Counted from the first letter of the stretch, positions 1,598 to 25,133 are shown. The stretch: 64,000 nucleotides of DNA from an uncultured cyanobacterium (GCA_963744145.1 CAVUSO010000001.1:1216001-1280000), one strand, 5' to 3'. Notes: generated by a model not told the origin, from the letters alone. A program made the numbers and translations.

Positions 1598-2770
1598 TCA
1601 TAGTTCAAATTCTTTCTCAATATATGACCATCTACAACTAGATTTAGCACAAATTGCCTCAAACACATCTTCCGGAGTGCCATTCTTGCTCTTATTCCAT
1701 ATTTCCTGAAATAAGTTTTCGATTGGGTCATCATCAGGATGGTTTAACAATGTACTATACTGTTCTAACCAATGGCTTAAAACTGGACTCCAAGTAACCG
1801 TACTAGATTCATTATTTGTGCTAAATTTTTTGATAACTGGTAAACTAATAGGTATTTGAGAATGCCAGTTATCTAGATCATTACAAGAAGCCCAGTTAAT
1901 TTTCCATTTAGAAGCTTGAACTTGATTATCAGTTAAAAACATAAAAAGATAATTTTTTACTTTCGGATCAGTTGCAGAATAGGTACTGATTTTTTTGCTC
2001 AGAGGTTTCCAAAAATTTTCAATCAACTTATAAATTACATCCTGGTGGAAAGTATGGATATTAAGAATTTTGATCGCGACAGTTTGTGTTTTCCAGTATT
2101 CAAAAGTTTTATCTACATAATTTTCAGTTTTTCCTTCTGGTACACCCAGTTGTTTTGCTAATCGGTGCCAAACTTCATCAATATTAACCTCTTGTGAATG
2201 ATTAAAATGAACTTTAATCTGCTTAAGTGTAACATAATCCTTTGGAATATTATCCTCTAATAATCGATGTATTAACCAACGTTGACCATGCTTTGGCTCA
2301 CCTTGAATTAGAAAAGCACCTACTCTGGTGATCTGATTCGTGATCAAATTTCTGAAGGGGTCACATTGAGCTTCATAATTAAGTTTTAACAAAGCTTTTG
2401 CTAACCTATTAACATTCTGACTATTTATTGGATTTCTTGAAAAAGATTGTCCATTTGGTAATGTACGGTAATCTTCTCCTTCTTTAAGAGTCATGACATC
2501 TATTTGTAGACGTTGATGATAGGAATTTCCATATAGTTTAATTAATTCTTGGTGTAACTTATAAAATAATTTATCTAAGCTAGAGAAAGTTACAGGGTCT
2601 TTACCTTTTTGAATTTTTGCAAATAATTCTCTATCCAGTCCAGTCAGACTGCTAATCGCAGTATTAGTAACTTTTTCTTTATTAAATATAGGTTTTAACG
2701 CATTCGCAAGCTTTTGCTGTCCCTTTGGTTCTAATAAACATCGATGGTCAGAGCCTTTTTGAGTATACAT
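1598..2770 (-). CDS. XRE-like HTH fused to inactive STAND (iSTAND-like) domain
   Basis: N-terminal AISSLTGLDRELFAKI HTH-like segment; degenerate P-loop AFLIQGEPKHGQRWL lacking GKT; directly upstream of MoxR. Confidence 0.7.
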   Translation of the reverse strand: MYTQKGSDHRCLLEPKGQQKLANALKPIFNKEKVTNTAISSLTGLDRELFAKIQKGKDPVTFSSLDKLFYKLHQELIKLYGNSYHQRLQIDVMTLKEGEDYRTLPNGQSFSRNPINSQNVNRLAKALLKLNYEAQCDPFRNLITNQITRVGAFLIQGEPKHGQRWLIHRLLEDNIPKDYVTLKQIKVHFNHSQEVNIDEVWHRLAKQLGVPEGKTENYVDKTFEYWKTQTVAIKILNIHTFHQDVIYKLIENFWKPLSKKISTYSATDPKVKNYLFMFLTDNQVQASKWKINWASCNDLDNWHSQIPISLPVIKKFSTNNESSTVTWSPVLSHWLEQYSTLLNHPDDDPIENLFQEIWNKSKNGTPEDVFEAICAKSSCRWSYIEKEFEL

Positions 2771-2862
2771 TGAAAAAATTTGGATGTATGGGTGGATAGG
2801 ATTTCCTGATTAATTTTACATCATTTAGCTGAAAAGCTTACTGGCACTAGCTTAAAAAATTT

Positions 2863-2877
2863 TGCGGATGATCCGCA
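2863..2877. promoter_or_regulatory. Palindromic candidate operator
   Basis: Perfect tgcggat-g-atccgca in the divergent intergenic region. Confidence 0.35.
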
Positions 2878-3005
2878 GAGACAGTTTTTCAACGTTTTAT
2901 TGTATTCAACATGGAAGCCACAGAACAAAGACTCCCTCATTATATATAGGAAAAGTCGCTGACGCAGTTTCCATAAAGATCCTTTATCAACGACCGATAC
3001 AAAGT

Positions 3006-3404
3006 ATGACCACTACTATAACTCAAAACGGAAAAAAAGCCCCAGTTTCTAGCTTAGAAACCGAATCTGCTGAAAATGAAACCTGGGATTGTGCGATCGC
3101 GATCCAAGTCCCAATCATCTTTTCCTGGATCTCTTTTATCGTTTCACTCTTTCAAGGGTGGAAGATCATTAAATCATTCAGTCAACTCTTTCGTGGGTCC
3201 TGTGTCTGGCCCGAATTTGGCACTTGGATCAATTCCCAGGGACGATTAGTATGGGATTTGAATATCTGGATTAAATCCTCAACAAATTATGAAAGTTTGC
3301 AATTGAATTATAGCGAGGTAAAACGGATAGCATTAGAAATGAAAAAGAAACTACATCAAGAGGCTGTAGTGATTGAAGTAAATAACGAGATCCACTTGCT
3401 TTAA
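3006..3404 (+). CDS. Hypothetical protein (132 aa from ATG 3006), possible P-II/DUF3574-like fold
   Basis: GxW...G.LV.D and IA.EMKKKLHQEAV motifs; the TTG start at 2862 is less likely. Confidence 0.55.
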   Translation: MTTTITQNGKKAPVSSLETESAENETWDCAIAIQVPIIFSWISFIVSLFQGWKIIKSFSQLFRGSCVWPEFGTWINSQGRLVWDLNIWIKSSTNYESLQLNYSEVKRIALEMKKKLHQEAVVIEVNNEIHLL

Positions 3405-3443
3405 GTAATTTGCGATCGGAACTTAAATCATCAATCAGACCTA

Positions 3444-3742
3444 ATACCAATTAACTATGAAATTGCACTTAATCTGAGGTTGATCTGTTAGGTCAGGGCA
3501 GGTTTATAATGGTGATCTGTTGGTGGCAAAATTGACTGGTGAACCTGCCCCTACCAATTTTATCCTCAATTTGCGGATTTCTGTAGTAGGGGCGGGTTCG
3601 CCCAGATTTTTGAAATTTACCAATTAATTAGAAAAACCCGCCCGGGTTCACCGAGATGTTTGACATTTACCTACTAATCATCAAAACCCACCCTCACCCA
3701 CAGATCAATATACATCAATGTATCTTCATGGTGAATTGGTAT
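3444..3742. mobile_element. MITE/REP composite
   Basis: TIR ataccaattaactatgaa / ttcatggtgaattggtat (16/18), internal (g)ggcgggtt...aacccgccc REP pairs; C/G-run hairpin follows at 3745-3780. Confidence 0.7.
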
Positions 3743-4010
3743 AACCCCCCAACCCCCTTCCCTACCAGGGAATGGGGAGTAATTAATAATAATTAATAAG
3801 CCAAATTGGCTCTCCCGTACTGATGGTGATCAGTAAAAATTATTGAATTTCCAAATGCTTACTATATAAGCTTTTTCCCTGCTCCCTGTCCTCATCTCCC
3901 TGCCGAAAAACGGGATTTTCCACCACAAATACGGGAGAGCCAAAACGGTTTTTCCGTTGATGATGGGATTATCCCAATATTGGGCTATAATTTTTCCTGA
4001 ACTCCAAAAT

Positions 4011-7000
4011 TTATTTAACATCCAAATCTGTTACCCCATCCCAGTCTAGCGGAACTCCATACTTTAAATGTTGTTGACAGCGTTTCACATATAGCATCGC
4101 TGCCTGATCTTGAGGATTAGTGGCTAATATTCGCGTAAATATAGGTTGCGCCCCCACAAAATCTTGGCGATTATAAGCCATCACCGCGGCTTCAAACCTA
4201 CTCTTAGTTTGCGTCTTTAATTGATGAGATAATCCCTCTTCTGGATCATAGATTTCATAAATTGCCACCGCATTATTTTTCCCTTTCACTCGCACCCGAT
4301 CGAGAAATCTAAAACTATAATGCTGAATTTCTTCAATCCGAACTAAAGTATGTACACTGATTAAAATTCCCGCTCCATATAACTTGGTTAATCCTTCCAA
4401 TCGCGAAGCTAAATTCACCGCATCAGAAATTACTGTTGTCTCCATTCGTTCCGGTTCTCCAATGGTTCCTAACATTAAATTACCTGTATGTAAACCAATC
4501 CCAATCGCGATCGGCACTAATCCTTGTTGTTGTCGCTCTTGATTAAAAAGTGCGACTTTTTGCTGCATCGAAATTGCGGCTTGAACTGCACCATCTGCTG
4601 ACTGGGGAAATAAAGCCATAATCCCATCCCCAATATACTTATCAATAAAACCATCATGTTCTCTAATCACAGGACTAACTTGGCTTAAATAAGCATTAAT
4701 AAAATTAAAAATCTCTTGGGGTGTCATCCCTTCTGACAGATGAGTAAAGGAGAGAATATTAGCAAACATTACCGTCATTTCTTGCTGAATTTGGTTACCA
4801 ATTTGAACATCAATAATGCTGTCTTTTCCTAAAAAATTGAGGAAATCTCGTGGTACAAATCGTCCATAAGCTAAAGTGAGTTTAGCTAAATTCAAATGAG
4901 TTTTTATCCGCGCCAGCATTTCCTGTTTTTGAATCGGTTTAGTCAAATAATCATTGGCACCTAATGTAAATCCCTCTACAATATTTTCGGGTTGATTTTT
5001 GGCTGTTAAAATCACAATGGGCAGTTCATGAGCCGGAAAACGTTCACGAATTTTCTGACAAACTTCATAACCCGTCATCCGGGGCATCATCAGATCCAGT
5101 AAGATCAAATCTGGGATAAAACCATTTTCGATAATCGCTAAAGCTTCTGTGCCATTACAGGCTTCTGTCAGAGTATAATTGGCAAGAGAAAGGATATTGA
5201 TTAACACCTGACGATTAATCGGTTCATCATCAACGATTAAGATTTTAAATTGTTGGCTATCAGCCGCCAAATTAACAGCTTTTTGCCTAGGTGTTAAAGT
5301 AAGTAATTCCACAGTAAGGCTGTCTCGTAGTACCGTAATTGGTGGCGTTGATTTAACTTTTTCGGAGGCAATGGGTAAAGTAAAGGTAAACTTTGAGCCG
5401 ACCCCAATTTGAGACTGGAGCGTAATTGTCCCACCATGGATTTCCACCAGTTTTTTCGTTACAGCTAATCCTAATCCGGTGCCACCATATTCTCTCGCAG
5501 TGGAACCTTCTGCTTGTTCAAAGGATTGAAAAATCTGGTCAAACTTATCTTGGGCAATGCCAATACCTGTGTCAGAAATAGTCACAGATAGTAGCTCTTC
5601 TTGGTCAGAAGATATCACTTGTGCCGAAACTTCAATAGTACCGGACGGAGTGAATTTGATCGCATTACCAATTAAATTATGAAGAATTTGTTGTAAGCGA
5701 TTTTCATCAGCCAGAGCATTGGGTAAGTCTTCCGGAATTGCATTGATGAACTGGAGGTTTTTCTGTTGAGCTAAAGGTTGGCTGAGAGTGAGGACAATCT
5801 GGGTAATCGCTCTTAAATCGACGGGTGTTAATTTGAGTTCAAGATGGTGGTGTCTGAGTTTAGAAAAATCAAGAATATCGTTAATTAAACTGGCGAGACG
5901 GCGACCACTAGAGACAATTAATTGCAAGTTGGTTTGAGTGGTGGTTGGGAGTTCTCCTGTCGCACCATCAATTAATGATTCAGCAATACCAATAATCCCA
6001 TTCAGAGGAGTGCGGAGTTCGTGGGAAGTATTGGCGAGAAATTCATCTTTGAGTTGGTCGAGATGATATAGTTCTTGGTTTTTAGTCTCCAGTTTTTCAA
6101 ACGAATTCTTCAATTGTCCTCCCATGTGATTGAACGAATTTACTAGGGTATCCAGTTCCATAATGGGACTGGGTGGAATATCCTGATCCAGGTGACCTTG
6201 AGCCAGTTCATCAGATGCTTGGGAGACACGCAAAATGGGACTAATCACCCAACGAGCAGTGTAAATACCGATCGCGATCGCTAAACTCAGTACCCCTAAA
6301 CAGAGCCAAACTATGTTGGGAGTGTTAGCATAAATTTGGTCCATGAAGTCAGATTCAGGAATAATAATGACAATGAGCCAGTCTAGATTCAAGTTCTTAA
6401 AGGGTACGACTTGGATATATTGCTTCTGGTTATGTAAATTAAAGTCAATTTGTTGGACGGATTGAATCTGGTTGAGGTTGTGAAAGCGATCGCTCAAAAA
6501 CTGAGCCGTAGCTTTAATCGTAGGATTAGGACTATCAACTGCTGCCAGACGGGTAGTATTTTCTCCCGTACCCTTGAGGATAGATTCGGGTCCAGAAGTG
6601 GAAATCAGTTGTCCGGAGCGTTCCATAATAAACACCGTACCTGTGATCCCAATATTCAAACTTTGGAGAAACTTCGACATTTCTTGGGGCAAAAAGAACT
6701 CGCTCCCACAAACCCCAATCAAAGATTGATCGGTTAGGCTATAGACCGGTACACTGGAAGCGATCGAGGGCAATAAAGTCGAAAAATCAAGATATTCGCT
6801 CCAGACACTTTGCCCTGTTTCCTTTGCAGCTTTGTACCAAGGGCGAATGCGGGGATTGTAAGGCTTATAAGATAAAGTATCTACCTGCTGAGTCGGATTA
6901 CCTTGAGTATCTAAAGCAAAATATTGGTTGATCGATTTGGTGGATGGATTGCTAAATACGAGGGTCAATTTTGAGCGATCTTCTTTGGAAAACCTAGCAA

Positions 7001-7373
7001 CACCAAGGAATCCAGTATTTTCATCGCCACAGAAAGTATAGCTAATGAAAGGATAGGTCTGCATTTGCTCCCAGATTTGCGCTGCACCTTTCACTTCGCT
7101 CACATCAATGACACCCCTAGCCAAGGAGGAAGCATTGAGACGACTAATAGAGTAAGGAATTTCTGTATAGGATTTTAGTTTTTCTTCAATCCGCTTTGAT
7201 AATTCTAAACGTAATTGACTGGCCACATCATTAACTGCTTGCTGCCCATCGCGGAAAGAGAGATAGCTCACCAAACAAACCGTTGCCATGATTTGTAACA
7301 CAAAAGGCACCACCAGGGTGGTGCGGAGCCGAAATTTTAGGGATGATTTGTTAACTGCATTAAAATCATTCAT
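4011..7373 (-). CDS. Hybrid sensor kinase/adenylate cyclase copy 1 (TM-dCache-TM-HAMP-HisKA-HATPase-REC-cyclase); first metal-binding Asp replaced by Asn
   Basis: H-box [35 protein letters not shown], cyclase DKYIGD and NLASRLE, but FANIL instead of FADIR. Confidence 0.93.
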   Translation of the reverse strand: MNDFNAVNKSSLKFRLRTTLVVPFVLQIMATVCLVSYLSFRDGQQAVNDVASQLRLELSKRIEEKLKSYTEIPYSISRLNASSLARGVIDVSEVKGAAQIWEQMQTYPFISYTFCGDENTGFLGVARFSKEDRSKLTLVFSNPSTKSINQYFALDTQGNPTQQVDTLSYKPYNPRIRPWYKAAKETGQSVWSEYLDFSTLLPSIASSVPVYSLTDQSLIGVCGSEFFLPQEMSKFLQSLNIGITGTVFIMERSGQLISTSGPESILKGTGENTTRLAAVDSPNPTIKATAQFLSDRFHNLNQIQSVQQIDFNLHNQKQYIQVVPFKNLNLDWLIVIIIPESDFMDQIYANTPNIVWLCLGVLSLAIAIGIYTARWVISPILRVSQASDELAQGHLDQDIPPSPIMELDTLVNSFNHMGGQLKNSFEKLETKNQELYHLDQLKDEFLANTSHELRTPLNGIIGIAESLIDGATGELPTTTQTNLQLIVSSGRRLASLINDILDFSKLRHHHLELKLTPVDLRAITQIVLTLSQPLAQQKNLQFINAIPEDLPNALADENRLQQILHNLIGNAIKFTPSGTIEVSAQVISSDQEELLSVTISDTGIGIAQDKFDQIFQSFEQAEGSTAREYGGTGLGLAVTKKLVEIHGGTITLQSQIGVGSKFTFTLPIASEKVKSTPPITVLRDSLTVELLTLTPRQKAVNLAADSQQFKILIVDDEPINRQVLINILSLANYTLTEACNGTEALAIIENGFIPDLILLDLMMPRMTGYEVCQKIRERFPAHELPIVILTAKNQPENIVEGFTLGANDYLTKPIQKQEMLARIKTHLNLAKLTLAYGRFVPRDFLNFLGKDSIIDVQIGNQIQQEMTVMFANILSFTHLSEGMTPQEIFNFINAYLSQVSPVIREHDGFIDKYIGDGIMALFPQSADGAVQAAISMQQKVALFNQERQQQGLVPIAIGIGLHTGNLMLGTIGEPERMETTVISDAVNLASRLEGLTKLYGAGILISVHTLVRIEEIQHYSFRFLDRVRVKGKNNAVAIYEIYDPEEGLSHQLKTQTKSRFEAAVMAYNRQDFVGAQPIFTRILATNPQDQAAMLYVKRCQQHLKYGVPLDWDGVTDLDVK

Positions 7374-7421
7374 ACCATCTCCATATTAAACCATATTTCG
7401 GGCAATTTTGAAAATAAAATT

Positions 7422-7545
7422 AGACAAGAAAGCAAAAGTCCTTATTGATCTATTTATTGACAGGCAAGATGCCTGTCCCACCAGAAAAAATCACTTTTGT
7501 GGGACAGGCATCTTGCCTGTCCTATTTATTTTTGCTTTCTTGTCT
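7422..7545. mobile_element. 124-bp MITE
   Basis: 16-bp perfect TIR agacaagaaagcaaaa, TSD att, internal gacaggcaagatgcctgtc palindromes; empty site visible upstream of copy 2 (~10993-11030). Confidence 0.85.
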
Positions 7546-7594
7546 ATTGAATCAATTCTATAAATGCACTCAGGAAAAAATAGATTTTTGATAA

Positions 7595-10500
7595 TTAGTT
7601 AAAATCCAAATCAGTCACACCATCCCATCCAACCGGAACTCCATACAGTCGATATTTTTGACAGCGTTTCACATAGAGCATTGCTGCCTGATCTTGAGGA
7701 TTAGTAGCTAATATTTCCTCAAATACAGGTTGCGCCCCCACAAAATCCTGGCGATTATAAGCCATCACCGCTGCTTCAAACATACTCTTAGTCTGCGTCT
7801 TTAATTGATGAGATAATCCCGCTTCTAGATCATATATTTCATAAATAGCCACCGCATCATTTTTCTCGTTCACCCGTACCCGATCCAAAAATCTGAAACT
7901 ATAATGCTGAATCTCTTCAATCCGAATCAAGGTATGGATACTAATTATGATACCAACTCCATATAACTTAGTTAAACCTTCCAAATGTGAGGCTAAATTC
8001 ACCGCATCAGAAATTACTGTTGTCTCCATCCGTTCTGGTTCTCCAATGGTTCCTAACATTAAATTCCCCGTATGTAAACCAATTCCAATCGCGATCGGCA
8101 CTAATCCCTGTTGTTGTCGCTCTTGATTAAAAAGTGCGACTTTTTGCTGCATCGAAATTGCGGCTTGAACTGCACCATCTGCTGACTGGGGAAATAAAGC
8201 CATAATTGCATCCCCAATATACTTATCAATAAAACCATCATGTTCTCTAATCGCCGGACTAACTTGAATTAAATAAGCATTAAGAAAATTAAAAGCATCT
8301 TGGGGTGTCATCCCTTCTGACAGATGAGTAAAGGAGCGAATATCGGCAAACATCACTGTCATTTCTTGTTGACTTTGATTGCCAATTTGAACATCAATAA
8401 TGCTGTCTTTCCCTAAAAAATTGAGGAAATCTCGTGGTACAAATCGCCCGTAAGCTAAAGTAAGTTTAGCTAAATTCAAATGAGTTCTCATTCGCGCCAG
8501 CATTTCCTGTTTTTGAATCGGTTTAGTCAAATAATCATTGGCACCTAATGTAAATCCCTCTACAATATTTTCGGTTTGATTTTTGGCTGTTAAAATCACA
8601 ATGGGCAGTTCATGAGCCGGAAAACGTTCACGAATTTTCTGACAAACTTCATAACCCGTCATCCGGGGCATCATCAGATCCAGTAAGATCAAATCTGGGA
8701 TAAAACCATTTTCGATAATCGCTAAAGCTTCTGTGCCATTACAGGCTTCTGTCAGAGTATAATTGGCAAGAGAAAGGATATTGATTAACACTTGACGATT
8801 AATCGGTTCATCGTCAACGATTAAGATTTTAAATTGTTGGCTATCAGCCGCAAAATTAACAGCTTTTTGCCTAGGTGTTAAAGTAAGTAATTCCACAGTA
8901 AGGCTGTCTCGTAGTACCGTAATTGGTGGCGCTGATTTAACTTTTTCAGAGGCAATGGGTAAAGTAAAGGTAAACTTTGAACCGACACCAACTTGAGACT
9001 GGAGCGTAATTGTCCCACCATGGATTTCCACCAGTTTTTTCGTCACAGCTAATCCTAATCCGGTGCCACCATATTCTCTGGCTGTCGAACCTTCTGCTTG
9101 TTCAAAGGATTGAAAAATCTGGTCAAACTTATCTGGGGCAATGCCAATACCTGTGTCAGAAATAGTCACAGCTAATAGCTCTTCTTGGTCAGAAGATATC
9201 ACTTGTGCCGAAACTTCAATAGTACCTGACGGAGTGAATTTAATCGCATTACCAATTAGATTATGGAGGATTTGTTGTAAGCGATTTTCGTCAGCCAGAG
9301 CATTGGGTAAGTCTTCCGGAATCGCGTTGATGAATTGGAGATTTTTTTGTTGGGCTAAAGGTTGGCTGAGGGTGAGGACAATCTGGGTAATCGCTCTTAA
9401 ATCGACGGGTGTTAATTTGAGTTCAAGATGGTGGTGTCTAAGTTTAGAAAAGTCAAGAATATCATTAATTAAACTGGCGAGACGGCGACCACTAGAGACA
9501 ATTAATTGCAAGTTGGTTTGAGTGGTGGTTGGGAGTTCTCCTGTCGCCCCATCGATCAATGATTCAGCAATACCAATAATCCCATTTAGAGGAGTGCGGA
9601 GTTCGTGGGAAGTATTGGCGAGAAATTCATCTTTGAGTTGGTCGAGATGATATAGTTCTTGGTTTTTAGTCTCCAGTTTTTCAAACGAATTCTTCAATTG
9701 CCCTGCCATGTGATTAAACGAATCCGCCAGGGTATCCATTTCCATAATAGAACTAGGCCCAATATGCTGATCCAGATGACCTTGAGCCATTTCATTAGAT
9801 GCTTGGGAGACACGTAGGATGGGATGAGTCACCCAACGAGCAGTGTAAATACCGATCACGATCGCTAAACTCATTGCCCCCAAACAGAGCCAAACTGTGT
9901 TGAGAGTGCTGGCATAAATTTGTCCCATGAAGTCAGATTCAGGAATGATAATCACAATCAGCCAGTCTAGATTCAAGTTCTTAAAGGGTACGACTTGGAT
10001 ATATTGTTTCTGGTCATGTAAATTAAAGTCAATTTGTTGGACAGATTGAATCTGGTTGAGGTTGTGGAAGCGATCGCCTAAAAACTGAGCCGTAGCTTTA
10101 ATCGTAGGATTAGGACTATCAACTGCTGCTAGACGGATGGTATTTTTTCCTGTGCCCTTGAGCATCGGTTCGGGGGTAGAAGTGGCAATCAGTTGCCCAG
10201 AGCGTTCTACAATAAATACTGTACCAGTTTTACCAATACTCAAACCTTGGAGAAAATTCGACATTTCTTGAGGTAAATAGAAGTCAGTAGAACAAACCCC
10301 AATCAAAGATTTATCTGTTAGGCTATAGACAGGCATATTCGCGGTTGCCGAGGGATAAAAAGTAGCAAAATCAAGAAAAATTTCGCTCCAGACACTTTGC
10401 CCTGCTGCTTTTGCCGCTTTGTACCAAGGGCGAAGTCGGGGATCGTAGGGCGTATCAAACGAACCTGCGGGCTGAGTGCGATTACCTTGGGCATCGAAGT

Positions 10501-10975
10501 TAAAGTATTGGCGCATCAACTTGGTTGATGGATTGCTAAATGCGAAGATAAATTTTGAGCGATCTTGGTCTGAAAGTCTACCAACACCTAAAAAACCAGC
10601 TTTTTCATCGCCACAAAAAATATAGCTAATGGTAGGATAGGTCTGCATTTGCTGCCACATTTGCGCTTCACCTTTTACTCCGCTCACATCAATTACACCC
10701 CTAGCGAAAGCAGAAGCATTGATTCGGTTGATGGAGTAAGAAATTTCTGTATAGGATTGTAGTTTTTCCTCAATGCGATTCGATAATTCTGAGCGCAATT
10801 GACTCGCCACATGATTGACTGCTCGCTGTCCATTGCAGAAGGAAATATAGCCCACCAAACAAACCGCAGCCACGATTTGTAATACGAAGGGCACTAGCAG
10901 AGCGGTGCGGAGCCGAAATTTTAGGGATGTTTGGTTAACCTTAAAATCATTCAGACTATCTCTTGATTTAACCAT
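7595..10975 (-). CDS. Hybrid sensor kinase/adenylate cyclase copy 2; catalytic Arg replaced by His, VKGK changed to VNEK
   Basis: Same architecture; FADIR and IGDA intact; NLASHLE, RVNEKN. Confidence 0.93.
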   Translation of the reverse strand: MVKSRDSLNDFKVNQTSLKFRLRTALLVPFVLQIVAAVCLVGYISFCNGQRAVNHVASQLRSELSNRIEEKLQSYTEISYSINRINASAFARGVIDVSGVKGEAQMWQQMQTYPTISYIFCGDEKAGFLGVGRLSDQDRSKFIFAFSNPSTKLMRQYFNFDAQGNRTQPAGSFDTPYDPRLRPWYKAAKAAGQSVWSEIFLDFATFYPSATANMPVYSLTDKSLIGVCSTDFYLPQEMSNFLQGLSIGKTGTVFIVERSGQLIATSTPEPMLKGTGKNTIRLAAVDSPNPTIKATAQFLGDRFHNLNQIQSVQQIDFNLHDQKQYIQVVPFKNLNLDWLIVIIIPESDFMGQIYASTLNTVWLCLGAMSLAIVIGIYTARWVTHPILRVSQASNEMAQGHLDQHIGPSSIMEMDTLADSFNHMAGQLKNSFEKLETKNQELYHLDQLKDEFLANTSHELRTPLNGIIGIAESLIDGATGELPTTTQTNLQLIVSSGRRLASLINDILDFSKLRHHHLELKLTPVDLRAITQIVLTLSQPLAQQKNLQFINAIPEDLPNALADENRLQQILHNLIGNAIKFTPSGTIEVSAQVISSDQEELLAVTISDTGIGIAPDKFDQIFQSFEQAEGSTAREYGGTGLGLAVTKKLVEIHGGTITLQSQVGVGSKFTFTLPIASEKVKSAPPITVLRDSLTVELLTLTPRQKAVNFAADSQQFKILIVDDEPINRQVLINILSLANYTLTEACNGTEALAIIENGFIPDLILLDLMMPRMTGYEVCQKIRERFPAHELPIVILTAKNQTENIVEGFTLGANDYLTKPIQKQEMLARMRTHLNLAKLTLAYGRFVPRDFLNFLGKDSIIDVQIGNQSQQEMTVMFADIRSFTHLSEGMTPQDAFNFLNAYLIQVSPAIREHDGFIDKYIGDAIMALFPQSADGAVQAAISMQQKVALFNQERQQQGLVPIAIGIGLHTGNLMLGTIGEPERMETTVISDAVNLASHLEGLTKLYGVGIIISIHTLIRIEEIQHYSFRFLDRVRVNEKNDAVAIYEIYDLEAGLSHQLKTQTKSMFEAAVMAYNRQDFVGAQPVFEEILATNPQDQAAMLYVKRCQKYRLYGVPVGWDGVTDLDFN

Positions 10976-11146
10976 GTCTCGGGTAGTTGTTGAAAATAAA
11001 ATTAAGTCAATTCTATCAATGTACTCAGAAAAACTTTAGCGCTCTTATTGCAACTACATACCTAAAAATCAGATATTTTCTTCTCTAACTGAACTGGATT
11101 GACTCATAAGTTACTTTCTGCAAATAAATCAAAAAATTACTAAACA

Positions 11147-11176
11147 GCGATCGCGCATCAAGTTTGCCAATCCTGA
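11147..11176. repeat. 30-bp spacer repeat, identical to 18140-18169
   Basis: gcgatcgcgcatcaagtttgccaatcctga just downstream of the stops of copies 3 and 5. Confidence 0.9.
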
Positions 11177-11187
11177 ATTTTTGATAC

Positions 11188-14100
11188 TTACTTAAAATCT
11201 AAATCTGTTACACCATCCCAACCGACCGGAACTCCATACTGTCGATATTGGTGACAGCGTTTCACATACAGCACCGCTGCCTGATCTTCAGGATTAGTGG
11301 CTAATATTTCCTCAAATACGGGTTGCGCTCCGACAAAATCTTGGCGATTATAGGCCATCACTGCTGCTTCAAAAATACTCTTTGTTTGCGTCTTTAATTG
11401 ATTAGAAAATCCCCCATCTGTCTCATAGATTTCATAAATTGCCACTGCATCATTTTTGCCTTTCACCCGCACCCGATCGAGAAATCTAAAACTATAATGT
11501 TGAATTTGTTCAATCCGAACTAAAGTATGTACACTGATTAAGATCCCGACTCCATATAACTTGGTTAATCCTTCCAACCGTGAGGCTAAATTTACTGCAT
11601 CAGCAATTACTGTTGTCTCCATCCGTTCCGGTTCTCCAATGGTTCCTAACATTAAATTACCTGTATGTAAACCAATCCCAATCGCGATCGGCACTAATCC
11701 CTGTTGTTGTCGCTCTTGATTAAAAAGTGCGACTTTTTGCTGCATCGAAATTGCCGCTTGAACTGCCCCATCTGCGGATTGGGGAAATAGCGCCATAATC
11801 GCATCTCCAATATACTTATCAATAAAACCATCATGTTCTCTAATCGCCGGACTAACTTGACTTAAATAGGCATTAATAAAATTAAAATTCTCTTGAGGTG
11901 TCATCCCTTCTGATAGAGTAGTAAAGGAGCGAATATCGGCAAACATTACGGTCATTTCCTGCTGAATTTGGTTACCAATTTGGACATCAATAATGCTGTC
12001 TTTCCCTAAGAAGTTGAGAAAATCTCGCGGCACAAATCGCCCGTAAGCTAAAGTCAGTTTGGCTAAATTCAAATGAGTTTTCATCCGCGCCAGCATTTCC
12101 TGTTTTTGAATGGGTTTAGTCAAATAATCATTAGCACCTGATGTAAATCCATCCACAATATTTTCGGTTTGATTTTTCGCCGTCAGGATCACAATTGGCA
12201 ATTCATGAGCTGGAAAACGTTCGCGAATTTTCTGACAAACTTCATAACCAGTCATCCGGGGCATCATCAAATCTAGGAGGATCAAATCGGGGATAAAACC
12301 ATTTTCAATTGTGGCTAAAGCTTCTTCTCCATTACTGGCTTCAGTCAGGGTGTAATTATAAAGGGAAAGATTGTTAATTAAGACCTGACGATTAATCGGT
12401 TCGTCATCAACAATTAAGATTTTGAATTGTTGGTTGTCAGTGGCAATATTTACAGTTTTTTGAATGGAAGATAAAGCGATCGATTCAGGAACAAATTTGT
12501 TGCCAAGTGTGGCAATTGGTGACACTAATTTAGCTTTTTCTTGGGCAATAGGTAAGGTAAAAGTAAATTGTGAGCCTACTCCGACTTGTGATTCGATAGT
12601 AATTTCACCACCATGTAATTCGACGAGTTGTTTGGTAACAGCTAATCCCAATCCGGTGCCACCATATTCTCTCGCTGTCGAACCTTCCGCTTGTTCAAAG
12701 GATTGAAAGATCCGCTCGAAATTATCTTGGGCAATCCCAATTCCTGTATCCGAAATAGTGACAGCTAATACATCCTCTTGATTAGGAGATATCACTTTTG
12801 CCGAGACTTCGACAGTTCCAGATGGGGTGAATTTAATGGCATTGCCAATCAGGTTATAGAGAATTTGTTGTAAGCGATTTTCGTCGGCTTCCGCATGAGG
12901 TAAATCTTCAGGAATAGCGTTGATTAACTGTAAATTTTTCTGCTGGGCTAAAGGTTGACTGAGGGTGATAATAATATTAGTAATGGCTCTTAAATCAACA
13001 GGTGCTAATCGTAGTTCTAGGTTATTGTGTTTGAGTTTCGAGAAGTCAAGAATATCGTTAATTAAGCTGGCCAGACGGCGACCACTGGAGACTATTAATT
13101 GCAGGTTGCTTTGGGTAGTAGAAGGGAGTTCCCCCGTTGCGCCATCAATGAGTGATTCGGCAATACCAATAATCCCATTGAGAGGGGTGCGGAGTTCGTG
13201 GGATGTATTCGCTAAAAATTCGTCTTTAAGTTGGTCGAGATGATGTAGTTCTTCATTTTGATTAGCTAGAGTTTCTTTTTGAACTTCGAGGGTAGTAAAA
13301 GATTGCTTGAGTTGTACCGCCATGCTATTGAAGGACTGTTCTAGGGTTTCAATTTCTTCAATTTCAATTGCATCACTTATTTCTAGCTGTTGATCCAGAT
13401 TTCCTTTGGCAAGTTCTTGAGAGGCTTGAGTTAATTTGAGAATGGGTTTAGTAATTAAACGTGCTGTGAAGATGCCAATTAAAATTGCTACTCCCAATGC
13501 TGCCAAGGTTAACCAAATTGTGTTACGGGTATTAGTATTGATTTGCTCCATAAAATCTGACTCTGGTACAATCACCACAATCAGCCAGTTTAATCCTTCG
13601 TTATCTTGATAGGGGACTACTTGTAAAAATCGCTGCTGCCCTGCTATTTCAACATTAAGATTTTGCAACTTTTGAATTTGCTTAAAGCTGTCAAATTGCT
13701 TGATTAGATATATGGCTGTTTCTTGAGTAACAGAGTCGCTACTTTCTATAGCTTTGAAAAGTTCTCCTTTATTATTGTTGAATCGAACTAGATTTTCAGA
13801 GGTAGAAGTTGCAACTAATACTCCTTCCTGGGTGATCACAAATGTCTGCCCTGATTTACCCACTTTTAAACTCTGCAAAAATTGTGAGATGCTATCTAGG
13901 CGTAAAGTTACGTTCAAGACTCCTTCTAACTGACCATTTTGCGTGTAGACGGGTTGTACCGCACTGATTTGCATTTTGGGTTCAGTAAATGAAATCTCAA
14001 CTTGACTCCAAGATTTTTTCCCAGCTTTAACCCCATCTTGATACCAAAGTCTTTTTCGCCCATCAAAGTTTTTTATTACCCTAGAAACTTTAGTTGTATC

Positions 14101-14574
14101 GCCTTTTTCAGTAGCATTCCAAGCATAAAAATTAAAATTGGTAGATTCGTTACATAGGTTGAAAAGCAAAGTTTCATCTGCCAGTCTTTGTCCTGATATT
14201 ACATTTCCTTTGTTATTAACAAATGCAATAAAATCCAAGTTGGGGTATGACATCAGTTCTGGCCAAAAATATCTTTTTAAATTCATTAATTCCCGTAAGT
14301 TCAACCCCATATTTACAGCATTTAGGTTAATTTGATTGATTTGATGGGGAATCGCCAGGTAAGCTTTTATGTTTTGTTGAATGCGATCGGTAATTTCGTT
14401 TTGTACTTGACTAGCAACTTCATAAACAGCTCTTTGTCCGTTTTTAAAGGAGAGATATCCTACCAACCCCACAGCCCCAACAATTTGCAAAATAAACGGG
14501 ATAATCAGAACTGTTCGCAAGGGAAGTTTCCCTAAAACAGTTCCCACTTGGCGATTTATAATGTTGATAGACAT
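11188..14574 (-). CDS. Hybrid sensor kinase/adenylate cyclase copy 3
   Basis: All kinase, REC and cyclase motifs intact; ATG 14574 with GAGGGA RBS preferred over TTG 14661. Confidence 0.93.
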   Translation of the reverse strand: MSINIINRQVGTVLGKLPLRTVLIIPFILQIVGAVGLVGYLSFKNGQRAVYEVASQVQNEITDRIQQNIKAYLAIPHQINQINLNAVNMGLNLRELMNLKRYFWPELMSYPNLDFIAFVNNKGNVISGQRLADETLLFNLCNESTNFNFYAWNATEKGDTTKVSRVIKNFDGRKRLWYQDGVKAGKKSWSQVEISFTEPKMQISAVQPVYTQNGQLEGVLNVTLRLDSISQFLQSLKVGKSGQTFVITQEGVLVATSTSENLVRFNNNKGELFKAIESSDSVTQETAIYLIKQFDSFKQIQKLQNLNVEIAGQQRFLQVVPYQDNEGLNWLIVVIVPESDFMEQINTNTRNTIWLTLAALGVAILIGIFTARLITKPILKLTQASQELAKGNLDQQLEISDAIEIEEIETLEQSFNSMAVQLKQSFTTLEVQKETLANQNEELHHLDQLKDEFLANTSHELRTPLNGIIGIAESLIDGATGELPSTTQSNLQLIVSSGRRLASLINDILDFSKLKHNNLELRLAPVDLRAITNIIITLSQPLAQQKNLQLINAIPEDLPHAEADENRLQQILYNLIGNAIKFTPSGTVEVSAKVISPNQEDVLAVTISDTGIGIAQDNFERIFQSFEQAEGSTAREYGGTGLGLAVTKQLVELHGGEITIESQVGVGSQFTFTLPIAQEKAKLVSPIATLGNKFVPESIALSSIQKTVNIATDNQQFKILIVDDEPINRQVLINNLSLYNYTLTEASNGEEALATIENGFIPDLILLDLMMPRMTGYEVCQKIRERFPAHELPIVILTAKNQTENIVDGFTSGANDYLTKPIQKQEMLARMKTHLNLAKLTLAYGRFVPRDFLNFLGKDSIIDVQIGNQIQQEMTVMFADIRSFTTLSEGMTPQENFNFINAYLSQVSPAIREHDGFIDKYIGDAIMALFPQSADGAVQAAISMQQKVALFNQERQQQGLVPIAIGIGLHTGNLMLGTIGEPERMETTVIADAVNLASRLEGLTKLYGVGILISVHTLVRIEQIQHYSFRFLDRVRVKGKNDAVAIYEIYETDGGFSNQLKTQTKSIFEAAVMAYNRQDFVGAQPVFEEILATNPEDQAAVLYVKRCHQYRQYGVPVGWDGVTDLDFK

Positions 14575-14707
14575 AATAGAATTTCCCTCAATTGAATACT
14601 TTTTTTTGGCTACTAAGGAAAGAGAAATAGTCAACTCAGCTAATACTTGACAATAATTCAAGGGAATATTTATAGTTAAGCTGAAACAATCAATATTGTC
14701 TTGCCCA

Positions 14708-17700
14708 TTACTTAAAATCCAAATCCGTCACACCATCCCAACCGACCGGAACTCCATACTCTAAATATTGTTGACAGCGTTTCACATACAGCATCGCTGC
14801 CTGATCTTGAGGATTAGTGGCTAATATTCCCGTAAATACAGGTTGTGCCCCCACAAAATCCTGGCGATTATAAGCCATCACCGCGGCTTCAAACCTACTC
14901 TTAGTTTGCGTCTTTAATTGATGAGATAATCCCTCTTCTGGATCATAGATTTCATAAATAGCCACCGCATCATTTTTCCCTTTCACTCGGACTCGATCGA
15001 GAAATCTAAAACTATAATGCTGAATCTCTTCAATCCGAACTAAAGTATGTACACTGATTAAGATCCCGACTCCATATAACTTGGTTAATCCTTCCAACCG
15101 CGAAGCTAAATTCACTGCATCTGAAATTACGGTAGTTTCCATTCGTTCCGGTTCTCCAATCGTTCCTAACATTAAATTACCTGTATGTAAACCAATCCCA
15201 ATCGCGATCGGCACTAATCCCTGTTGTTGTCGCGCTTGATTAAAAAGTGCGACTTTTTGCTGCATCGAAATTGCCGCTTGAACTGCTCCATCTGCGGACT
15301 GGGGAAATAAAGCCATAATGGCATCCCCAATATACTTATCAATAAACCCATCATGTTCTCTAATCGCCGGACTAACTTGACTTAAATAGGCATTAATAAA
15401 ATTAAAATTCTCTTGAGGTGTCATCCCTTCTGATAGAGTAGTAAAGGAGCGAATATCGGCAAACATTACGGTCATTTCTTGCTGAATTTGGTTACCAATT
15501 TGGACATCAATAATGCTGTCTTTCCCTAAGAAGTTGAGAAAATCTCGCGGCACAAATCGTCCATAAGCTAACGTTAGTTTGGCTAAGTTCAAATGAGTTT
15601 TCATTCGCGCTAGCATTTCCTGTTTTTGAATCGGTTTAGCCAAATAGTCATTGGCACCGGATGTAAATCCCTCTACTATATTTTCAGTTTGATTTTTGGC
15701 TGTTAAAATGACAATGGGCAGTTCATGAGCTGGAAAACGTTCGCGAATTTTCTGACAAACTTCATAACCAGTCATCCGGGGCATCATCAAATCTAGGAGG
15801 ATCAAATCGGGGATCAACCCATTTTCGATAGTGGCTAAAGCTTCCGCTCCATTACTGGCTTCAGTTATGGTATAATTGTAAAGAGAAAGAATATTAATTA
15901 AGACCTGACGATTAATCGGTTCGTCATCCACGATTAAGATTTTAAATTGTTGGTTACCAGTAGCAAAATTAACGGCTTTTTGAATGGGTGCTAAGGTGGG
16001 TAATTCAGAAATAATGCTGTCACGGAGTACAGCAATTGGTGGAACTGATTTAACTTTTTCTGAGGAAATGGGTAAAGTAAAGGTAAATTGCGAGCCAATT
16101 CCGATTTGTGACTGAACAGTAATTTTACCACCATGTATTTCCACAAGTTGTTTGGTCACAGCTAATCCCAATCCAGTACCGCCATATTCCCTAGCTGTGG
16201 AACCTTCCGCTTGTTCAAAGGATTGAAAAATCTGCTCAAACTTATCTTGAGCAATGCCAATACCTGTATCGGAAATAGTCACAGCTAATACCTCCTCTTG
16301 GTCAGTAGATATCACTTGTGCAGAAACTTCAATAGTCCCTGATGGAGTAAATTTAATGGCATTACCAATCAGGTTATGCAGAATTTGTTGTAAGCGATTT
16401 TCGTCGGCATTAGCATTGGGTAAGTCTTCGGGAATAGCGTTGATTAGTTGTAAATTTTTCTGGTAGGCTAAAGGTTGACTAAGAGTAAGAATAATCTGAG
16501 TAATCGCTCTTAAATCGACGGGCGCTAATCGAAGTTTGATGTTCTGGTGTCGGAGTTTGGAAAAGTCAAGAATATCGTTAATTAAGCTGGTCAGACGACG
16601 ACCACTAGAAACAATTAGTTGCAAGTTGGTTTGGGTGGTAGAAGGGAGTTCTCCTGTGGCACCATCAATGAGTGATTCCGCAATACCAATAATCCCATTT
16701 AGAGGAGTACGGAGTTCATGGGAGGTATTTGCTAAAAATTCGTCTTTGAGTTGGTCAAGATGATGTAGTTCTTCATTTTGATGGGCGAGGGTTTCTTTTT
16801 GAATTTCCAGGGTAGTAAAGGATTGCTTGAGTTGGGTCGCCATGCTATTAAAGGACTGTTCTAGAGTTTCAATTTCTTCAATTTCAATCAAGTCCTTGAT
16901 ATCGACTTGTTGATCGAGGTTACCATCCGCAAGTTCTTGAGAAGCTTTGGTTAGTCTCAGAATCGGATTGGTAATAGTTCGGGTAGTAAGGATGCCAACA
17001 GCGATCGCGACTAGCATAGCGAGAAAGCATAACAGTGCAGTTCTCTGAGCGTGTTGGTTAATTTGAGCGAGAAAATCTGATTTAGGAATGGTGATCACAA
17101 TGGTCAATGACAAACCGAGTTCGTCTTGGAAGGGAATCGCTGTCAGAAAGTATGGTTCTCCCTTAACTTTAAAGGTCAATTTTTTGGAGCCTTTCAGCTT
17201 ACTTAAATCACCCATTTGTTGGCGCAATTCTTCACCTGCTGCTCGCAGAATAGGAGAGGGTGTATCAAACATTGTCAGCCGTTGTAAATCGGTGCTATTG
17301 GCGCTATTACTATCTTTGAAAACGGATTCTCTAGTTGAATTAGTCACCAGCGATCCATTAGGTTCAACAATATAAATTTTGGCTCCAGGAGATATTTTTA
17401 TGGTTTCTAAAAACTGGGTAAATCTGAGACTGATCAGGCTACCTAATACTGCCTGAAGTTCTCCGGTAGTATGATCATAGAGGGGCAACACGGCAGCTAT
17501 CAATAAATCTTTAGCCACAATCGATGGATAAATAGAAGTCCAAGTTGCTTTTTTAGCAGCTACTGCTGTTTTATAGGGAAGACGTTCTTTTGGCAGTACA
17601 TTTTTAAAAGATTCTACTAACTGGGCTCGATTACCTGCGGAGTCCACCTTGTAGATCCGATAGAGTGATTGATCGCTACCGTCAGCAATCAGTAAACCCC

Positions 17701-18100
17701 AGTAGAGAGGATCAGATGTACCGAATAATCCCGAACTGACAAAATCTCCCTGTGCATTAATCACCTGGAGACCATATACTTCTGGAAATTGCTGGTTTTG
17801 CAGGGTAAGATAGCGTTCTAACTTCGATAAATCATTGATATTTATCTGTCCCAATTCTACCGCATTGGCATTGAGACGATTAATTTTCGGCGGAATTTTC
17901 AGGTAATTTTCGAGATATAAGGAAACCCGATCGCCTGCTGCACTCATTAATCGATTGGCTAGTTCTTCTACTGCTTGTTGTCCATTTCTGTAGGAGAGAT
18001 AACCTACCAGCCCAACAGCAGCAACAATTTGGATTACAAAGGGTACGACGATCGCGGTATGGAGACGGAATTTTTGACGGATAGGTTTGGTAAAGCTCAT
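14708..18100 (-). CDS. Hybrid sensor kinase/adenylate cyclase copy 4
   Basis: Motifs intact; divergent dCache-like sensor. Confidence 0.93.
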
Positions 18101-18175
18101 AATTTAATTTCTTCAAATAAATTAAAAAATTGTTAAGCTGCGATCGCGCATCAAGTTTGCCAATCCTGATGATGT

Positions 18176-21100
18176 TTATTTAAAATCTAAATCTGTTACC
18201 CCATCCCAGTCTAGCGGAACTCCATACTGTAAATATTGTTGACATCGCTTTACATATAACATCGCTGCCTGATCTTCCGGATTAGTAGCTAATATTGAGG
18301 TAAATACAGGTTGCGCCCCCAGGAAATCCTGGCGATTATAAGCCATTACTGCTGCTTCAAACCTACTTTTAGTTTCTGTCTTTAATTGATGGGATAATCC
18401 CTCTTCTGGATCATAGATTTCATAAATTGCCACCGCATCATTTTTCCCTTTCACTCGGACTCGATCGAGAAATCTAAAACTATAATGCTGAATCTCTTCA
18501 ATCCGAACTAAGGTATGGACACTGATTAAGATTCCAGCTCCATATAACTTGGTTAATCCTTCCAACCGCGAAGCTAAATTCACTGCATCTGAAATTACGG
18601 TAGTTTCCATTCGTTCCGGTTCTCCAATAGTTCCTAACATTAAATTCCCCGTATGTAAACCAATCCCAATTGCGATCGGCACTAATCCCTGTTGTTGTCG
18701 CGCTTGATTAAAAAGTGCGACTTTTTGCTGCATCGAAATTGCGGCTTGAACTGCCCCATCTGCGGACTGGGGAAATAAAGCCATAATCGCATCCCCAATA
18801 TACTTATCAATAAACCCATCATGTTCTCTAATCGCCGGACTAACTTGACTTAAATAGGCATTAATAAAATTAAAATTCTCTTGGGGTGTCATCCCTTCTG
18901 ACAGGTTAGTAAAGGAGCGAATATCGGCAAACATTACGGTCATTTCTTGCTGAGTTTGATTGCCAATTTGGACATCAATAATGCTTTCTTTCCCTAGAAA
19001 ATTGAGAAAATCTCGCGGTACAAATCGCCCGTAAGCTAAAGTAAGTTTAGCTAAGTTCAAATGAGTTTTCATTCGCGCTAGCATTTCCTGTTTTTGAATC
19101 GGTTTAGCCAAATAATCATTGGCACCGGATGTAAATCCCTCTACTATATTTTCAGTTTGATTTTTGGCCGTCAGCATCACAATTGGCAATTCATGGGCCG
19201 GAAAACGTTCGCGAATTTTCTGACAAACTTCATAACCAGTCATCCGGGGCATCATCAAATCTAGGAGGATTAAATCCGGAATAAAACCATTTTCAATTGT
19301 GGCTAAAGCTTCTTCTCCATTACTGGCTTCAGTTATGGTATAATTATAAAGAGAAAGGTTGTTGATTAGGACTTGACGATTAATCGGTTCGTCATCCACG
19401 ATTAAAATTTTGAATAGTTGATCGTCAGTAGCAAGATTAACGGCTTTTTGGATAGGAGCTAAAGTGATTAATTCAGAACTAATCCGATTGTGGAGTGCCA
19501 TAATTGGTGAAACTGACTTAACTTTTTCTGTGGCAATGGGTAAAGTAAAGGTGAATTGTGAACCAACTCCGATTTGCGACTGGAGCGTAATTTTACCACC
19601 ATGTATTTCCACAAGTTGTTTGGTCACAGCTAGTCCCAATCCGGTGCCACCATATTCTCTAGCAGTCGAACCTTCCGCTTGTTCAAAGGATTGAAAGATG
19701 CGCTCAAACTTATCTTCAGCAATGCCAATTCCTGTATCCGAAATGGTGATAGCTAATACACTCTCTTGGTGAGAAGATATCACTTGTGCAGAAACTTTAA
19801 CAGTGCCCGATGGGGTAAATTTAATGGCATTACCAATTAGGTTGTGGAGAATTTGTTGTAAACGATTTTCGTCAGCCTCCGCATTAGGTAAGTCTTCCGG
19901 AATAGCGTTAATTAGTTGCAAATTTTTCTGGTAGGCTAAAGGTTGGCTGAGGGTGAGAACAATCTGAGTAATGGCTCTTAAATCGACAGGTGTTAATCGG
20001 AGTTCAAGGTTCTTCTGTTTGAGTTTAGAGAAGTCAAGAATATCGTTAATTAAGCTGGCCAGACGGCGACCACTGGAAACAATTAATTGTAGGTTAGTTT
20101 GGGTAGTGGAAGGGAGTTCTCCTGTTGCACCATCAATGAGTGATTCCGCAATGCCAATAATCCCATTTAAAGGAGTGCGGAGTTCATGGGAGGTATTCGC
20201 TAAAAATTCATCTTTAAGTTGGTCAAGATGATGCAGTTCTTCATTTTTATGAGCGAGGGTTTCTTTTTGAGATTCAAGGGTATTAAAGGATTGTTTAAGT
20301 TGTGCAGCCATGCTATTAAATGACTGCTCTAGGGTCTCAATTTCTTCAATTTCGAGGACATCGATCGTTTCTACCTGTTGATCAAGATTACCTTCGGCTA
20401 GTTCCTTAGAAGCTTGGGTTAATTTGAGAATGGGGTGAGTAATCAAACTTGCTGTAAAAATACCGATCGCGATCGCTACTCCTAAAGCTATCAAAGTTAA
20501 CCAAATTGTGTTGCGAGTATTGGCGTCAATTTGGGCCATGAAATCTGCTTCTGGTATAACTACCACAATTAACCAATCGATTCCTTTACCGTCATTCAAC
20601 GGCAATACTTGTACATACTGTCGTTCATTCTGTAACTGATAGTCCAATTGTTGCGATCGCTCAATTTTCTCAAAGCTACCAAATTGTTTTTGCAAATATC
20701 GTGCAGTTTCACGCACACGGGATTCGACGCTTTCTGTAGCTAAAATGAGTTTAGCATCTTTACCCTGACCGACGGTCAATGCTTCGTTTGTTGAACTGGA
20801 AAGCAGAGTACCTGTACGATCAATGATAAAAGCTCGTCCTGTCTTTCCAATCGAAAGGTTTGCCAAAAACTTCCTTAAATCGTCCAGTAATACTACATCA
20901 GTGGCACAAACACCCAAAATATTTTGCCCTGATTCATCATATATTGGTTCACTAGCAGTAATTGTGGGGAGACCACTAGCAAAATCTAAATATACCTCAC
21001 TCCAAGTTGATCGCTTGGCAGTGAGAGCAGCAATATACCAGGGACGTTTACGGGGGTCATAGGGTTTGAGTTTTTCCAAGAGTTGTTGTTTATTGCCCCG

Positions 21101-24687: not shown

Positions 24688-25133
24688 GTCTAATTTTTTC
24701 TGAGAATTTTCAAAAATCTTTCCCTGCAAAGCTTTGAGGAAATTAAAGCTTTATATATCATCACAAACTGTGATTGAATCGGTCATCCTATTCAGTTAGA
24801 TTGCACACACTCGGGATAAATATGATAACAATTTTTGATCATATTAGCCGATCGCGACCGCATGACCATCCGATGATCGGGACATCAGTCTTACCACCAA
24901 AAAACCTTGTGGGACAGAGGTCTGATCTGTCCTAATTATTTTTGTCAGAGGTCTATTGTGAAGATGCGTTTACCCGGAAAAGTTCACCCATCCTGATTTT
25001 TGATGTGGGTTGACGATGATTGGGAATCCTTGGTAAGTTAAAAATCTTCAGCTACTGATAAATTGAAAATGCTGAGATATTAATTGCTCAACTCACCTAT
25101 TATTTAGATATGTTGTATCACCAGTGAAGCAAG

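Follow-up and report, generated by a model that had tools for sequence, protein, structure and literature searches.

Neighbouring cyanobacterial cyclase genes with complementary catalytic lesions: a candidate two-gene heterodimeric adenylate cyclase

Class III nucleotidyl cyclases form their active sites at a dimer interface, to which one chain contributes a pair of metal-binding Asp residues and the other the base-binding and transition-state residues (PMC8815786, PMC9552081). Reviews describe bacterial class III cyclases as homodimers, and place the origin of the C1/C2 arrangement, through duplication and fusion, in eukaryotes (PMC9552081, PMC4821796). In engineered Rv1625c, the D300A and R376A variants are each inactive and complement each other within a dimer, also when fused to membrane receptors, and chimeric heterodimers that carry two different receptors are active but have lost ligand regulation (PMC4821796). 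Here we analyse a stretch of 64,000 nucleotides from an uncultured cyanobacterium (GCA_963744145.1, CAVUSO010000001.1:1216001-1280000; hereafter “the window”), in which six tandem genes on the minus strand (4011-24729, from open reading frame calls and translations; P0001-P0006, hereafter copies 1-6) encode cyclase paralogues. Two neighbouring members of this array, copy 1 (P0001, 1120 aa; 4011-7373) and copy 2 (P0002, 1126 aa; 7595-10975), carry catalytic lesions on opposite sides of the class III active site, making copy 1 “C2-like” and copy 2 “C1-like” by sequence.

Each of copies 1-5 contains the Pfam domains dCache_1, HAMP, HisKA, HATPase_c, Response_reg and Guanylate_cyc, while copy 6 contains only HisKA, HATPase_c, Response_reg and Guanylate_cyc, its N-terminal ~260 residues matching no Pfam family; given these domain sets, the copies are fusions of a membrane sensor, a hybrid histidine kinase and a class III cyclase. 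In copy 1 the order is dCache_1, HAMP, HisKA, HATPase_c, receiver (REC) and cyclase, an architecture that copy 2 repeats. All six copies score 60-69 bits against PF00211, the class III nucleotidyl cyclase family, where the cut-off is 21.9, and their cyclase domains have relatives in the PDB down to E = 4e-25, the best solved ones including CyaB (3R5G) and CyaC (1WC0). The features of a hybrid histidine kinase are likewise present in all six: H451, N566/N570, D601/G603/G605, G631/G633/G635, D715/D716, D760, T790 and K812 are invariant, and we take these to be the phospho-accepting His, the N and G boxes of the ATPase domain, and the acidic pocket, Asp, Thr and Lys of the receiver. The nearest relatives come from filamentous cyanobacteria (Leptolyngbyaceae, Scytolyngbya, Oscillatoriales and Microcoleus), with a best identity outside the window of 70%. 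The window copies themselves all belong to one contig of 7.63 Mb, represented by a single record.

Complementary lesions and their rarity

The catalytic domain of copy 1 (residues 862-1042; 4248-4790, minus strand) was delimited by Pfam and matches PDB chains at E = 1e-24 to 4e-25; that of copy 2 (residues 868-1048; 7832-8374, minus strand) was delimited by Pfam. In an alignment of the six copies, copy 1 reads FANIL where copies 2-5 read FADIR and copy 6 reads FVDIR. D872N (AAT, 4758-4760) removes the first metal-binding Asp, and R874L (CTC, 4752-4754) alters the +2 position of the same loop, while the substrate Lys, the Thr, the Asn/Arg pair and the KGK loop are all kept. Copy 2 retains both metal-binding Asp residues and reads NLASH and VNEK where the other five copies read NLASR and VKGK, having lost the transition-state Arg through R997H (CAT, 7985-7987) and suffered damage to the KGK loop through K1036N (AAC, 7868-7870) and G1037E (GAG, 7865-7867), although the second Lys of that loop survives. 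DKYIGD is common to all six copies, and each of the five lesion codons is one base away from the codon found in the other copies. Codons and alignment alike bear out the initial annotation, which had described these changes in both genes, the motifs kept beside them and the retention of every motif in copies 3-6; its claim that the lesions fall on complementary sides of the active site also holds in the alignments, and the surveys described below show each lesion to be unique in its family. Copies 3-6 (P0003-P0006; 11188-24729, minus strand) serve as an internal control for conservation.

Comparison with solved structures assigns the affected residues their roles. In HMMER alignments the Asn of copy 1 falls on the Asp of the D(I/L)RGFT motif in 2W01, 6FHT and 3R5G, and the His of copy 2 on the Arg of NLTYRIE (2W01), NLASRLE (3R5G) and NIAARLQ (1WC0/1WC1). 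At the KGK loop, 3R5G (CyaB) and 2W01 (Cya2) keep a single Lys, and it is the first Lys of the motif that aligns with it, so the loss caused by K1036N may matter. The full catalytic set of a competent homodimer is present in single chains of copies 3-6 and absent from those of copies 1 and 2; taken together, copies 1 and 2 have what characterises a C1/C2 enzyme at the level of sequence, namely two different catalytic domains with complementary catalytic residues.

Our best reading of this arrangement, to which we give slightly less than an even chance, is a dedicated 1:2 heterodimer with one complete site. Copies 1 and 2 would be a diverged duplicate pair of membrane sensor/hybrid histidine kinase/class IIIb adenylate cyclases whose cyclase domains have been turned into complementary half-enzymes. 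In the heterodimer, one interface site would be complete, with the Asp pair from copy 2 and the remaining residues from copy 1, and the second site would gather all of the lesions. A copy 1 homodimer would have two sites lacking the first Asp and a copy 2 homodimer two sites lacking the Arg, such that cyclic AMP output would need both gene products. Pairing is proposed to run through the bundle formed by the signalling helix and DHp, which is identical in the two proteins, and through their equally identical cyclase-transducer helices. Heterodimer-dependent catalysis of any kind, whichever the partners, we consider probable. The suggestion in the initial annotation that such a pair acts as an AND gate of two ligands is speculative, and is neither supported nor excluded by precedent, as the Rv1625c heterodimers with two receptors are active but unregulated.

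We surveyed the catalytic positions in three sets of relatives. The first held 122 sequences, comprising the best 120 proteins together with the window translations: 115 came from outside the window, the rest being the six copies and a start variant of copy 6. Conservation at the first Asp, the +2 Arg, the NLASR Arg and the Gly of KGK is 121/122 in each case; copies 1 and 2 are the sole deviants at these four positions, and none of the 115 other sequences is lesioned. The substrate Lys, the second Asp, the Thr and the Asn are retained in 122/122, whereas KGK is more variable, with Lys at its first position in 112/122 and, at its second, Lys in 119/122 and Arg in 3/122. The Thr, present in all six copies and throughout this family, is the class IIIb marker at the second substrate-specifying position, and it is the replacement of Asp by Thr there that defines the class.

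The second survey covered the 37 loci of a contig scan, among which the window's own genome does not figure, and returned 40 tblastn hits to the intact cyclase domain of copy 3. Among the loci L001-L035, 33 gave 35 hits, every one with both Asp residues and the Lys, Thr, Asn and Arg intact; L001 has two hits and the other loci of this range one each, save L034 with none, while L037 also has none and L036 has five.

The third survey, made with the copy 1 domain, comprised 150 representatives of 50%-identity clusters, in which there are 155 cyclase domains. Here the first Asp, the +2 Arg and the NLASR Arg are each conserved in 153/155 domains, the KGK Gly in 152/155 and the first KGK Lys in 139/155, this Lys being less conserved in the subfamily than the other lesion positions. 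Lesions at either Asp, the Asn or the Arg are found in all four proteins that have several cyclase domains (4/4) and in none of the single-domain proteins (0/146; Fisher p = 5e-8), and because of this split such lesions appear, in this subfamily, only where a partner domain is guaranteed. This suggests a general rule suited to genome-wide mining, under which the metal-binding Asp and the Asn/Arg pair are lesioned only with a second cyclase domain at hand. P0125 and P0126 have the Asp-to-Asn change of copy 1, and P0124 has an Arg-to-Asn change; in each of these three the lesioned domain adjoins a fully intact one. The four multi-domain proteins, P0123-P0126, have PAS, REC or 7TMR-DISM sensors in front of two or three cyclase domains per chain, with a TPR-like motif after each cyclase domain.

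Contig L036 (CAYYUI010000006.1, 1-21090), from an unrelated uncultured bacterium, contains six class III cyclase genes, with a match 32% identical to copy 1. Its first group consists of three genes at 2-1627, 1627-4560 and 4557-7529, overlapping by 1 and 4 bases. In the first of these both Asp residues are kept, Ala replaces the Thr, Gln replaces the Asn and KGK is missing; in the second His replaces the first Asp, and the Lys, Thr, Asn, Arg and KGK are kept; and the third keeps both Asp residues, has His for the Arg, which is the change seen in copy 2, and again lacks KGK. On the other strand lies a second pair, 18370-21075 followed by 15308-18373 with a 4-base overlap, of which the upstream gene keeps both Asp residues and has lost the Lys and Arg, and the downstream gene has lost both Asp residues and keeps the Thr, Asn, Arg and an RGK loop. 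The sixth gene (9719-11800), a dCache-cyclase, is intact. To judge by its residues, this contig follows the complementary-lesion logic of copies 1 and 2 and has gone much further along it.

Pairing, selection and competing explanations

Copies 1 and 2 are 87% identical overall, and their differences are unevenly spread. Over the signalling helix and DHp (copy 1 residues 425-507, 5853-6101, placed by the HisKA match; copy 2 residues 431-513, 9437-9685; both minus strand) the two proteins have the same sequence, 0/83 residues differing despite 7 synonymous differences, and over the cyclase-transducer segment (copy 1 residues 831-861, 4791-4883, minus strand, placed by position and by the account in PMC9552081) 0/31 residues differ, with 6 synonymous differences. 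The ATPase domain differs at 3/163 residues, REC at 3/122, the cyclase domain at 17/181 and HAMP at 11/54. The statement in the initial annotation that the HAMP-kinase-REC regions are almost identical is therefore accurate for the signalling helix/DHp, ATPase and REC portions and less so for HAMP. The periplasmic dCache sensor (in copy 1, approximately residues 46-345 by Pfam; 6339-7238, minus strand) is the most diverged part, at 71/299 residues and omega = 0.31. This difference is concentrated in the membrane-distal portion (59/190, against 5/75 in the membrane-proximal portion), so that the annotation's differing sensor pockets are better restated as differing sensor regions.

The principal argument for pairing of copy 1 with copy 2, rather than of copy 1 with any of copies 3-5, is a pair of deletions that copies 1 and 2 have in common relative to copies 3-5, one of 3 residues in HAMP and one of 7 residues, a single heptad, between HAMP and DHp. 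In chains anchored in the membrane, a length difference of one heptad should throw the DHp helices out of register when copies 1 and 3 form a dimer.

The history of the array is mosaic. Throughout the sensor, copies 1 and 2 pair as sisters (nucleotide identity 74-94%), and between residue 425 and about residue 820 their identity is 92-100%; past the boundary between REC and transducer, copies 4-6 resemble copy 1 at least as closely as copy 2 does, and over residues 981-1060 copy 2 is an outlier to all other copies, its cyclase domain being the array's most diverged at synonymous sites. A sharp breakpoint is visible at that same boundary (copy 1 residue ~821) when copies 1 and 2 are compared. 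Synonymous divergence (dS) between the two is 0.04 in REC, 0.13 in the signalling helix/DHp, 0.21 in the ATPase domain, 0.33 in the cyclase domain and 0.42 in the sensor. Recent gene conversion was considered as the sole cause of the DHp identity, and the 7 synonymous differences in that segment rule it out. Among copies 3-6 the dS of the cyclase domain (0.14-0.36) lies below that of the kinase or receiver (0.41-0.74), from which we infer concerted evolution of the output modules; across the whole array cyclase dS is 0.14-0.42. The persistence of lesioned tracts within a concertedly evolving set is compatible with selection keeping two cyclase domains different, and is no proof of it.

Tandem paralogues are prone to misassembly, and each protein is represented by a single record, raising the question of whether the lesions are sequencing or assembly errors in a repeat array. 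We regard this as extremely improbable, since it would take five separate substitutions in two genes, set amid many copy-specific synonymous differences and leaving the frames undisturbed. At the shared C-terminal block 387 of 684 codon columns vary among the copies, and with so many synonymous differences the copies are neither recent duplicates nor assembly ghosts, and dN/dS is meaningful.

Pairwise omega in the cyclase domain is 0.03-0.06 among copies 3-6, 0.08-0.09 in pairs with copy 1, 0.09-0.11 in pairs with copy 2, and 0.14 between copies 1 and 2. Counting replacements and synonymous changes private to one copy (N:S) over the transducer and cyclase, we obtain 5:6 for copy 1 (N/S ratio 0.24) and 12:15 for copy 2 (0.22), against 7:25 for copies 3-6 together, each of which has a ratio of 0.00-0.11. 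Neutral evolution can be rejected in copy 1 (p = 0.019) and copy 2 (p = 1.5e-4) alike. Purifying selection thus still maintains the two lesioned cyclase domains, with at most partial relaxation, and they are not decaying. A pseudogene reading of either copy is ruled out by intact frames and by N/S well below 1.

Three groups of results weigh against a dedicated 1:2 pair. The first concerns selection. The N/S of copies 1 and 2 is two- to three-fold above that of copies 3-6, a difference that is not significant (Fisher p = 0.076). A check by interface halves, using a crude half-domain split of the private replacements, came out cleanly for copy 1, with 4/5 in the Asp-bearing half, and did not for copy 2, which has five in its Asp-bearing half, expected to be constrained, and seven in its lesioned half (N:S 7:10 in the second half of the domain). 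Orthologues of copy 1 or 2 were found neither in the protein search (best 70%) nor in the contig scan (best locus 68%). Relaxed selection on a redundant output, which the initial annotation had named as a real alternative, consequently stays live: under it, copies 1 and 2 would be losing their cyclase and acting mainly as hybrid histidine kinases or phosphorelay sensors, with the complementarity of the lesions a coincidence. The raised ratios, the 12 private replacements in the transducer and cyclase of copy 2, the far stronger constraint on the kinase and receiver of both copies (private N/S 0.03-0.04 in HisKA-HATPase) and the lack of orthologues to show that the lesions are old all favour it. 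We nevertheless think it unlikely, given the rejection of neutrality in both domains, the absence of stops, frameshifts or deletions, and the conservative nature of the non-lesion replacements (one L to I and two V to I in the half of copy 2 that bears its lesions). In addition, placing the observed numbers of private replacements uniformly over the 181 codons produces complementary hits only ~3% of the time, and relatives with a single domain are lesioned in 0/115 and 0/146 cases.

The second group concerns the choice of partner. The transducer segment is the same in all six copies apart from D851E in copy 5, the cyclase domains are 92-94% identical with most of their surface alike in the six copies, and DHp differs at few positions; with transducer and cyclase surface so nearly identical, either lesioned copy could borrow an intact partner. 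Copies 1 and 2 might then be promiscuous modulators that pair with any of copies 3-6 as well, giving one active site per dimer and cross-wiring sensors or damping output, and the lesioned domain beside an intact one in each of P0124-P0126 fits such an arrangement. The common deletions of 7 and 3 residues between the second transmembrane segment and DHp, absent from copies 3-5, speak against it, as does the identity of copies 1 and 2 over the signalling helix/DHp, where copies 3-6 differ at several positions; on balance promiscuous pairing seems to us quite unlikely.

The third group concerns the severity of the lesions and the expression of the two genes. Asn and His are milder than the Ala of the published mutants, and residual homodimer activity is possible. 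The Leu that copy 1 has at the +2 position occurs in the single-domain representative P0266 too, so R874L alone may be tolerable. The copies might accordingly be hypomorphic or retuned homodimers, in which Asn still ligates metal and His partly stabilises the transition state, with an altered metal preference, pH dependence or basal rate; the mildness of the replacements and the purifying selection on both domains are what can be said for this, largely by inference. That Asn or His occupies these positions in 0/115 and 0/146 single-domain relatives, and that Asp-to-Asn is seen only in proteins with a second, intact cyclase domain (P0125 and P0126), makes it distinctly improbable. As to expression, the 221-nt spacer between copy 2 and copy 1 (7374-7594) contains a long inverted repeat at approximately 7420-7546, its RNA folds at -79.4 kcal/mol (z = -8.5), and a terminator-like site lies at 7499-7525; with so long a hairpin between the genes, co-transcription of copies 1 and 2 is not assured. 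Two further places in the window, 44727-44747 and 45846-45866, repeat the 21-base palindromic core of the hairpin, the latter with 2 mismatches; the hairpin itself may be a terminator, an attenuator, or a palindromic element that was inserted here or is dispersed. Across the window, terminator-like sites number 10 against 6.8 in shuffled sequence, and promoter-like sites, at 18 against 20.7, show no excess.

The rest of the array and its surroundings

Copy 6 (21898-24729) has no dCache sensor, transmembrane segments or HAMP, and the TTG given as its start is uncertain, with a 929-aa version (P0046) in the database. The listed TTG start of copy 3 (14574-14661) is probably too far upstream as well, since alignment to copies 4 and 5 makes an ATG at residue 30 (~14574) likelier. 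The window has a seventh class III cyclase gene, unrelated to these six, which encodes a CHASE2 sensor and a cyclase domain some 10 kb away from the array (34441-36405), near histidine kinase genes at 30271-32358 and 40275-42503 and an OmpR-type regulator gene at 38027-38743. Downstream of the array (304-2770) an AAA ATPase gene stands beside a gene with an “inactive STAND” (iSTAND) domain, and a gene on the other side (29062-30162) encodes a Tle1-like phospholipase catalytic domain (Pfam E = 1.5e-81).

Comparison with known two-part cyclases

The engineered Rv1625c pair D300A and R376A resembles copies 1 and 2 in distributing lesions of a metal-binding Asp and the transition-state Arg over two chains that are active on co-expression (PMC4821796), although both are Ala substitutions made in the laboratory in a single class IIIa gene. 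Separately encoded sensor-cyclase subunits active solely as heterodimers are described for the chytrid RGC1/RGC2 with NeoR and for the alpha and beta subunits of animal soluble guanylate cyclase, and the chytrid genes further resemble the window pair in being clustered in the genome and in giving the partners different sensors (PMC8815786). These are, however, eukaryotic guanylyl cyclases, all of them lacking histidine kinase and receiver modules, and RGC1 and RGC2 keep all catalytic residues (PMC8815786).

For the output cassette the nearest likeness is to cyanobacterial CyaC-type proteins and the algal 2c-Cyclop, which have the same HisKA-HATPase-REC-cyclase arrangement, and the class IIIb domain of the window copies is related to the Spirulina CyaC domain 1WC0 (E ~1e-18). 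CyaC is activated by phosphotransfer. The window proteins differ from CyaC and 2c-Cyclop in the periplasmic dCache sensor and HAMP placed in front, and CyaC and 2c-Cyclop are described as homodimers.

The closest parallels in catalytic residues are the genes of L036 and the fused proteins P0123-P0126, in both of which one domain or gene has lesions of the metal-binding Asp and its neighbour lesions of the Asn, Arg or Lys; these, too, are unannotated and uncharacterised, and no description of them was found in the literature. The L036 genes differ from the window copies in being only ~30% identical to them, in overlapping by 1-4 bases, in having no kinase and receiver modules and in being much more degenerate, and P0123-P0126 differ from the window pair as single chains. 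Set in order, the window pair, L036 and P0123-P0126 suggest a series that runs from adjacent genes through coupled genes to a fused chain.

We found no description of a natural bacterial class III adenylate cyclase built as a heterodimer from two genes in the literature covered, which largely left out subscription journals and did not take in the body of the survey PMC2447327, a text indexed as mentioning heterodimers alongside the tandem genes Rv1318c-Rv1320c. The most far-reaching version of the proposal, a natural bacterial two-gene adenylate cyclase active solely as a heterodimer of two different periplasmic sensors, and an intermediate, reached by duplication and complementary degeneration before any fusion, on the way to a C1/C2 enzyme, strikes us as doubtful. 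Were it true, such a pair would offer a simple way to tie cyclic AMP output to two sensors, and together with L036 and P0123-P0126 it would mean that bacteria have repeatedly gone this way, against the textbook view of their class III cyclases as homodimers. The second site, collecting the lesions, would be free to become an allosteric pocket, like the forskolin and bicarbonate sites.

Mammalian membrane adenylate cyclases, with their C1/C2 pseudo-heterodimer, and soluble adenylate cyclase resemble the proposed 1:2 heterodimer in uniting an Asp-bearing half with a base-binding and transition-state half, and in having one competent and one degenerate site (PMC8815786, PMC9552081). Their halves are fused in one chain, belong to class IIIa and diverged very long ago, whereas the window pair consists of two genes that are still closely alike, differ in few single-base lesions and each retain a sensor, kinase and receiver of their own; if the proposal is true, this young and unfused bacterial pair would be a living example of the step that precedes C1/C2 fusion.

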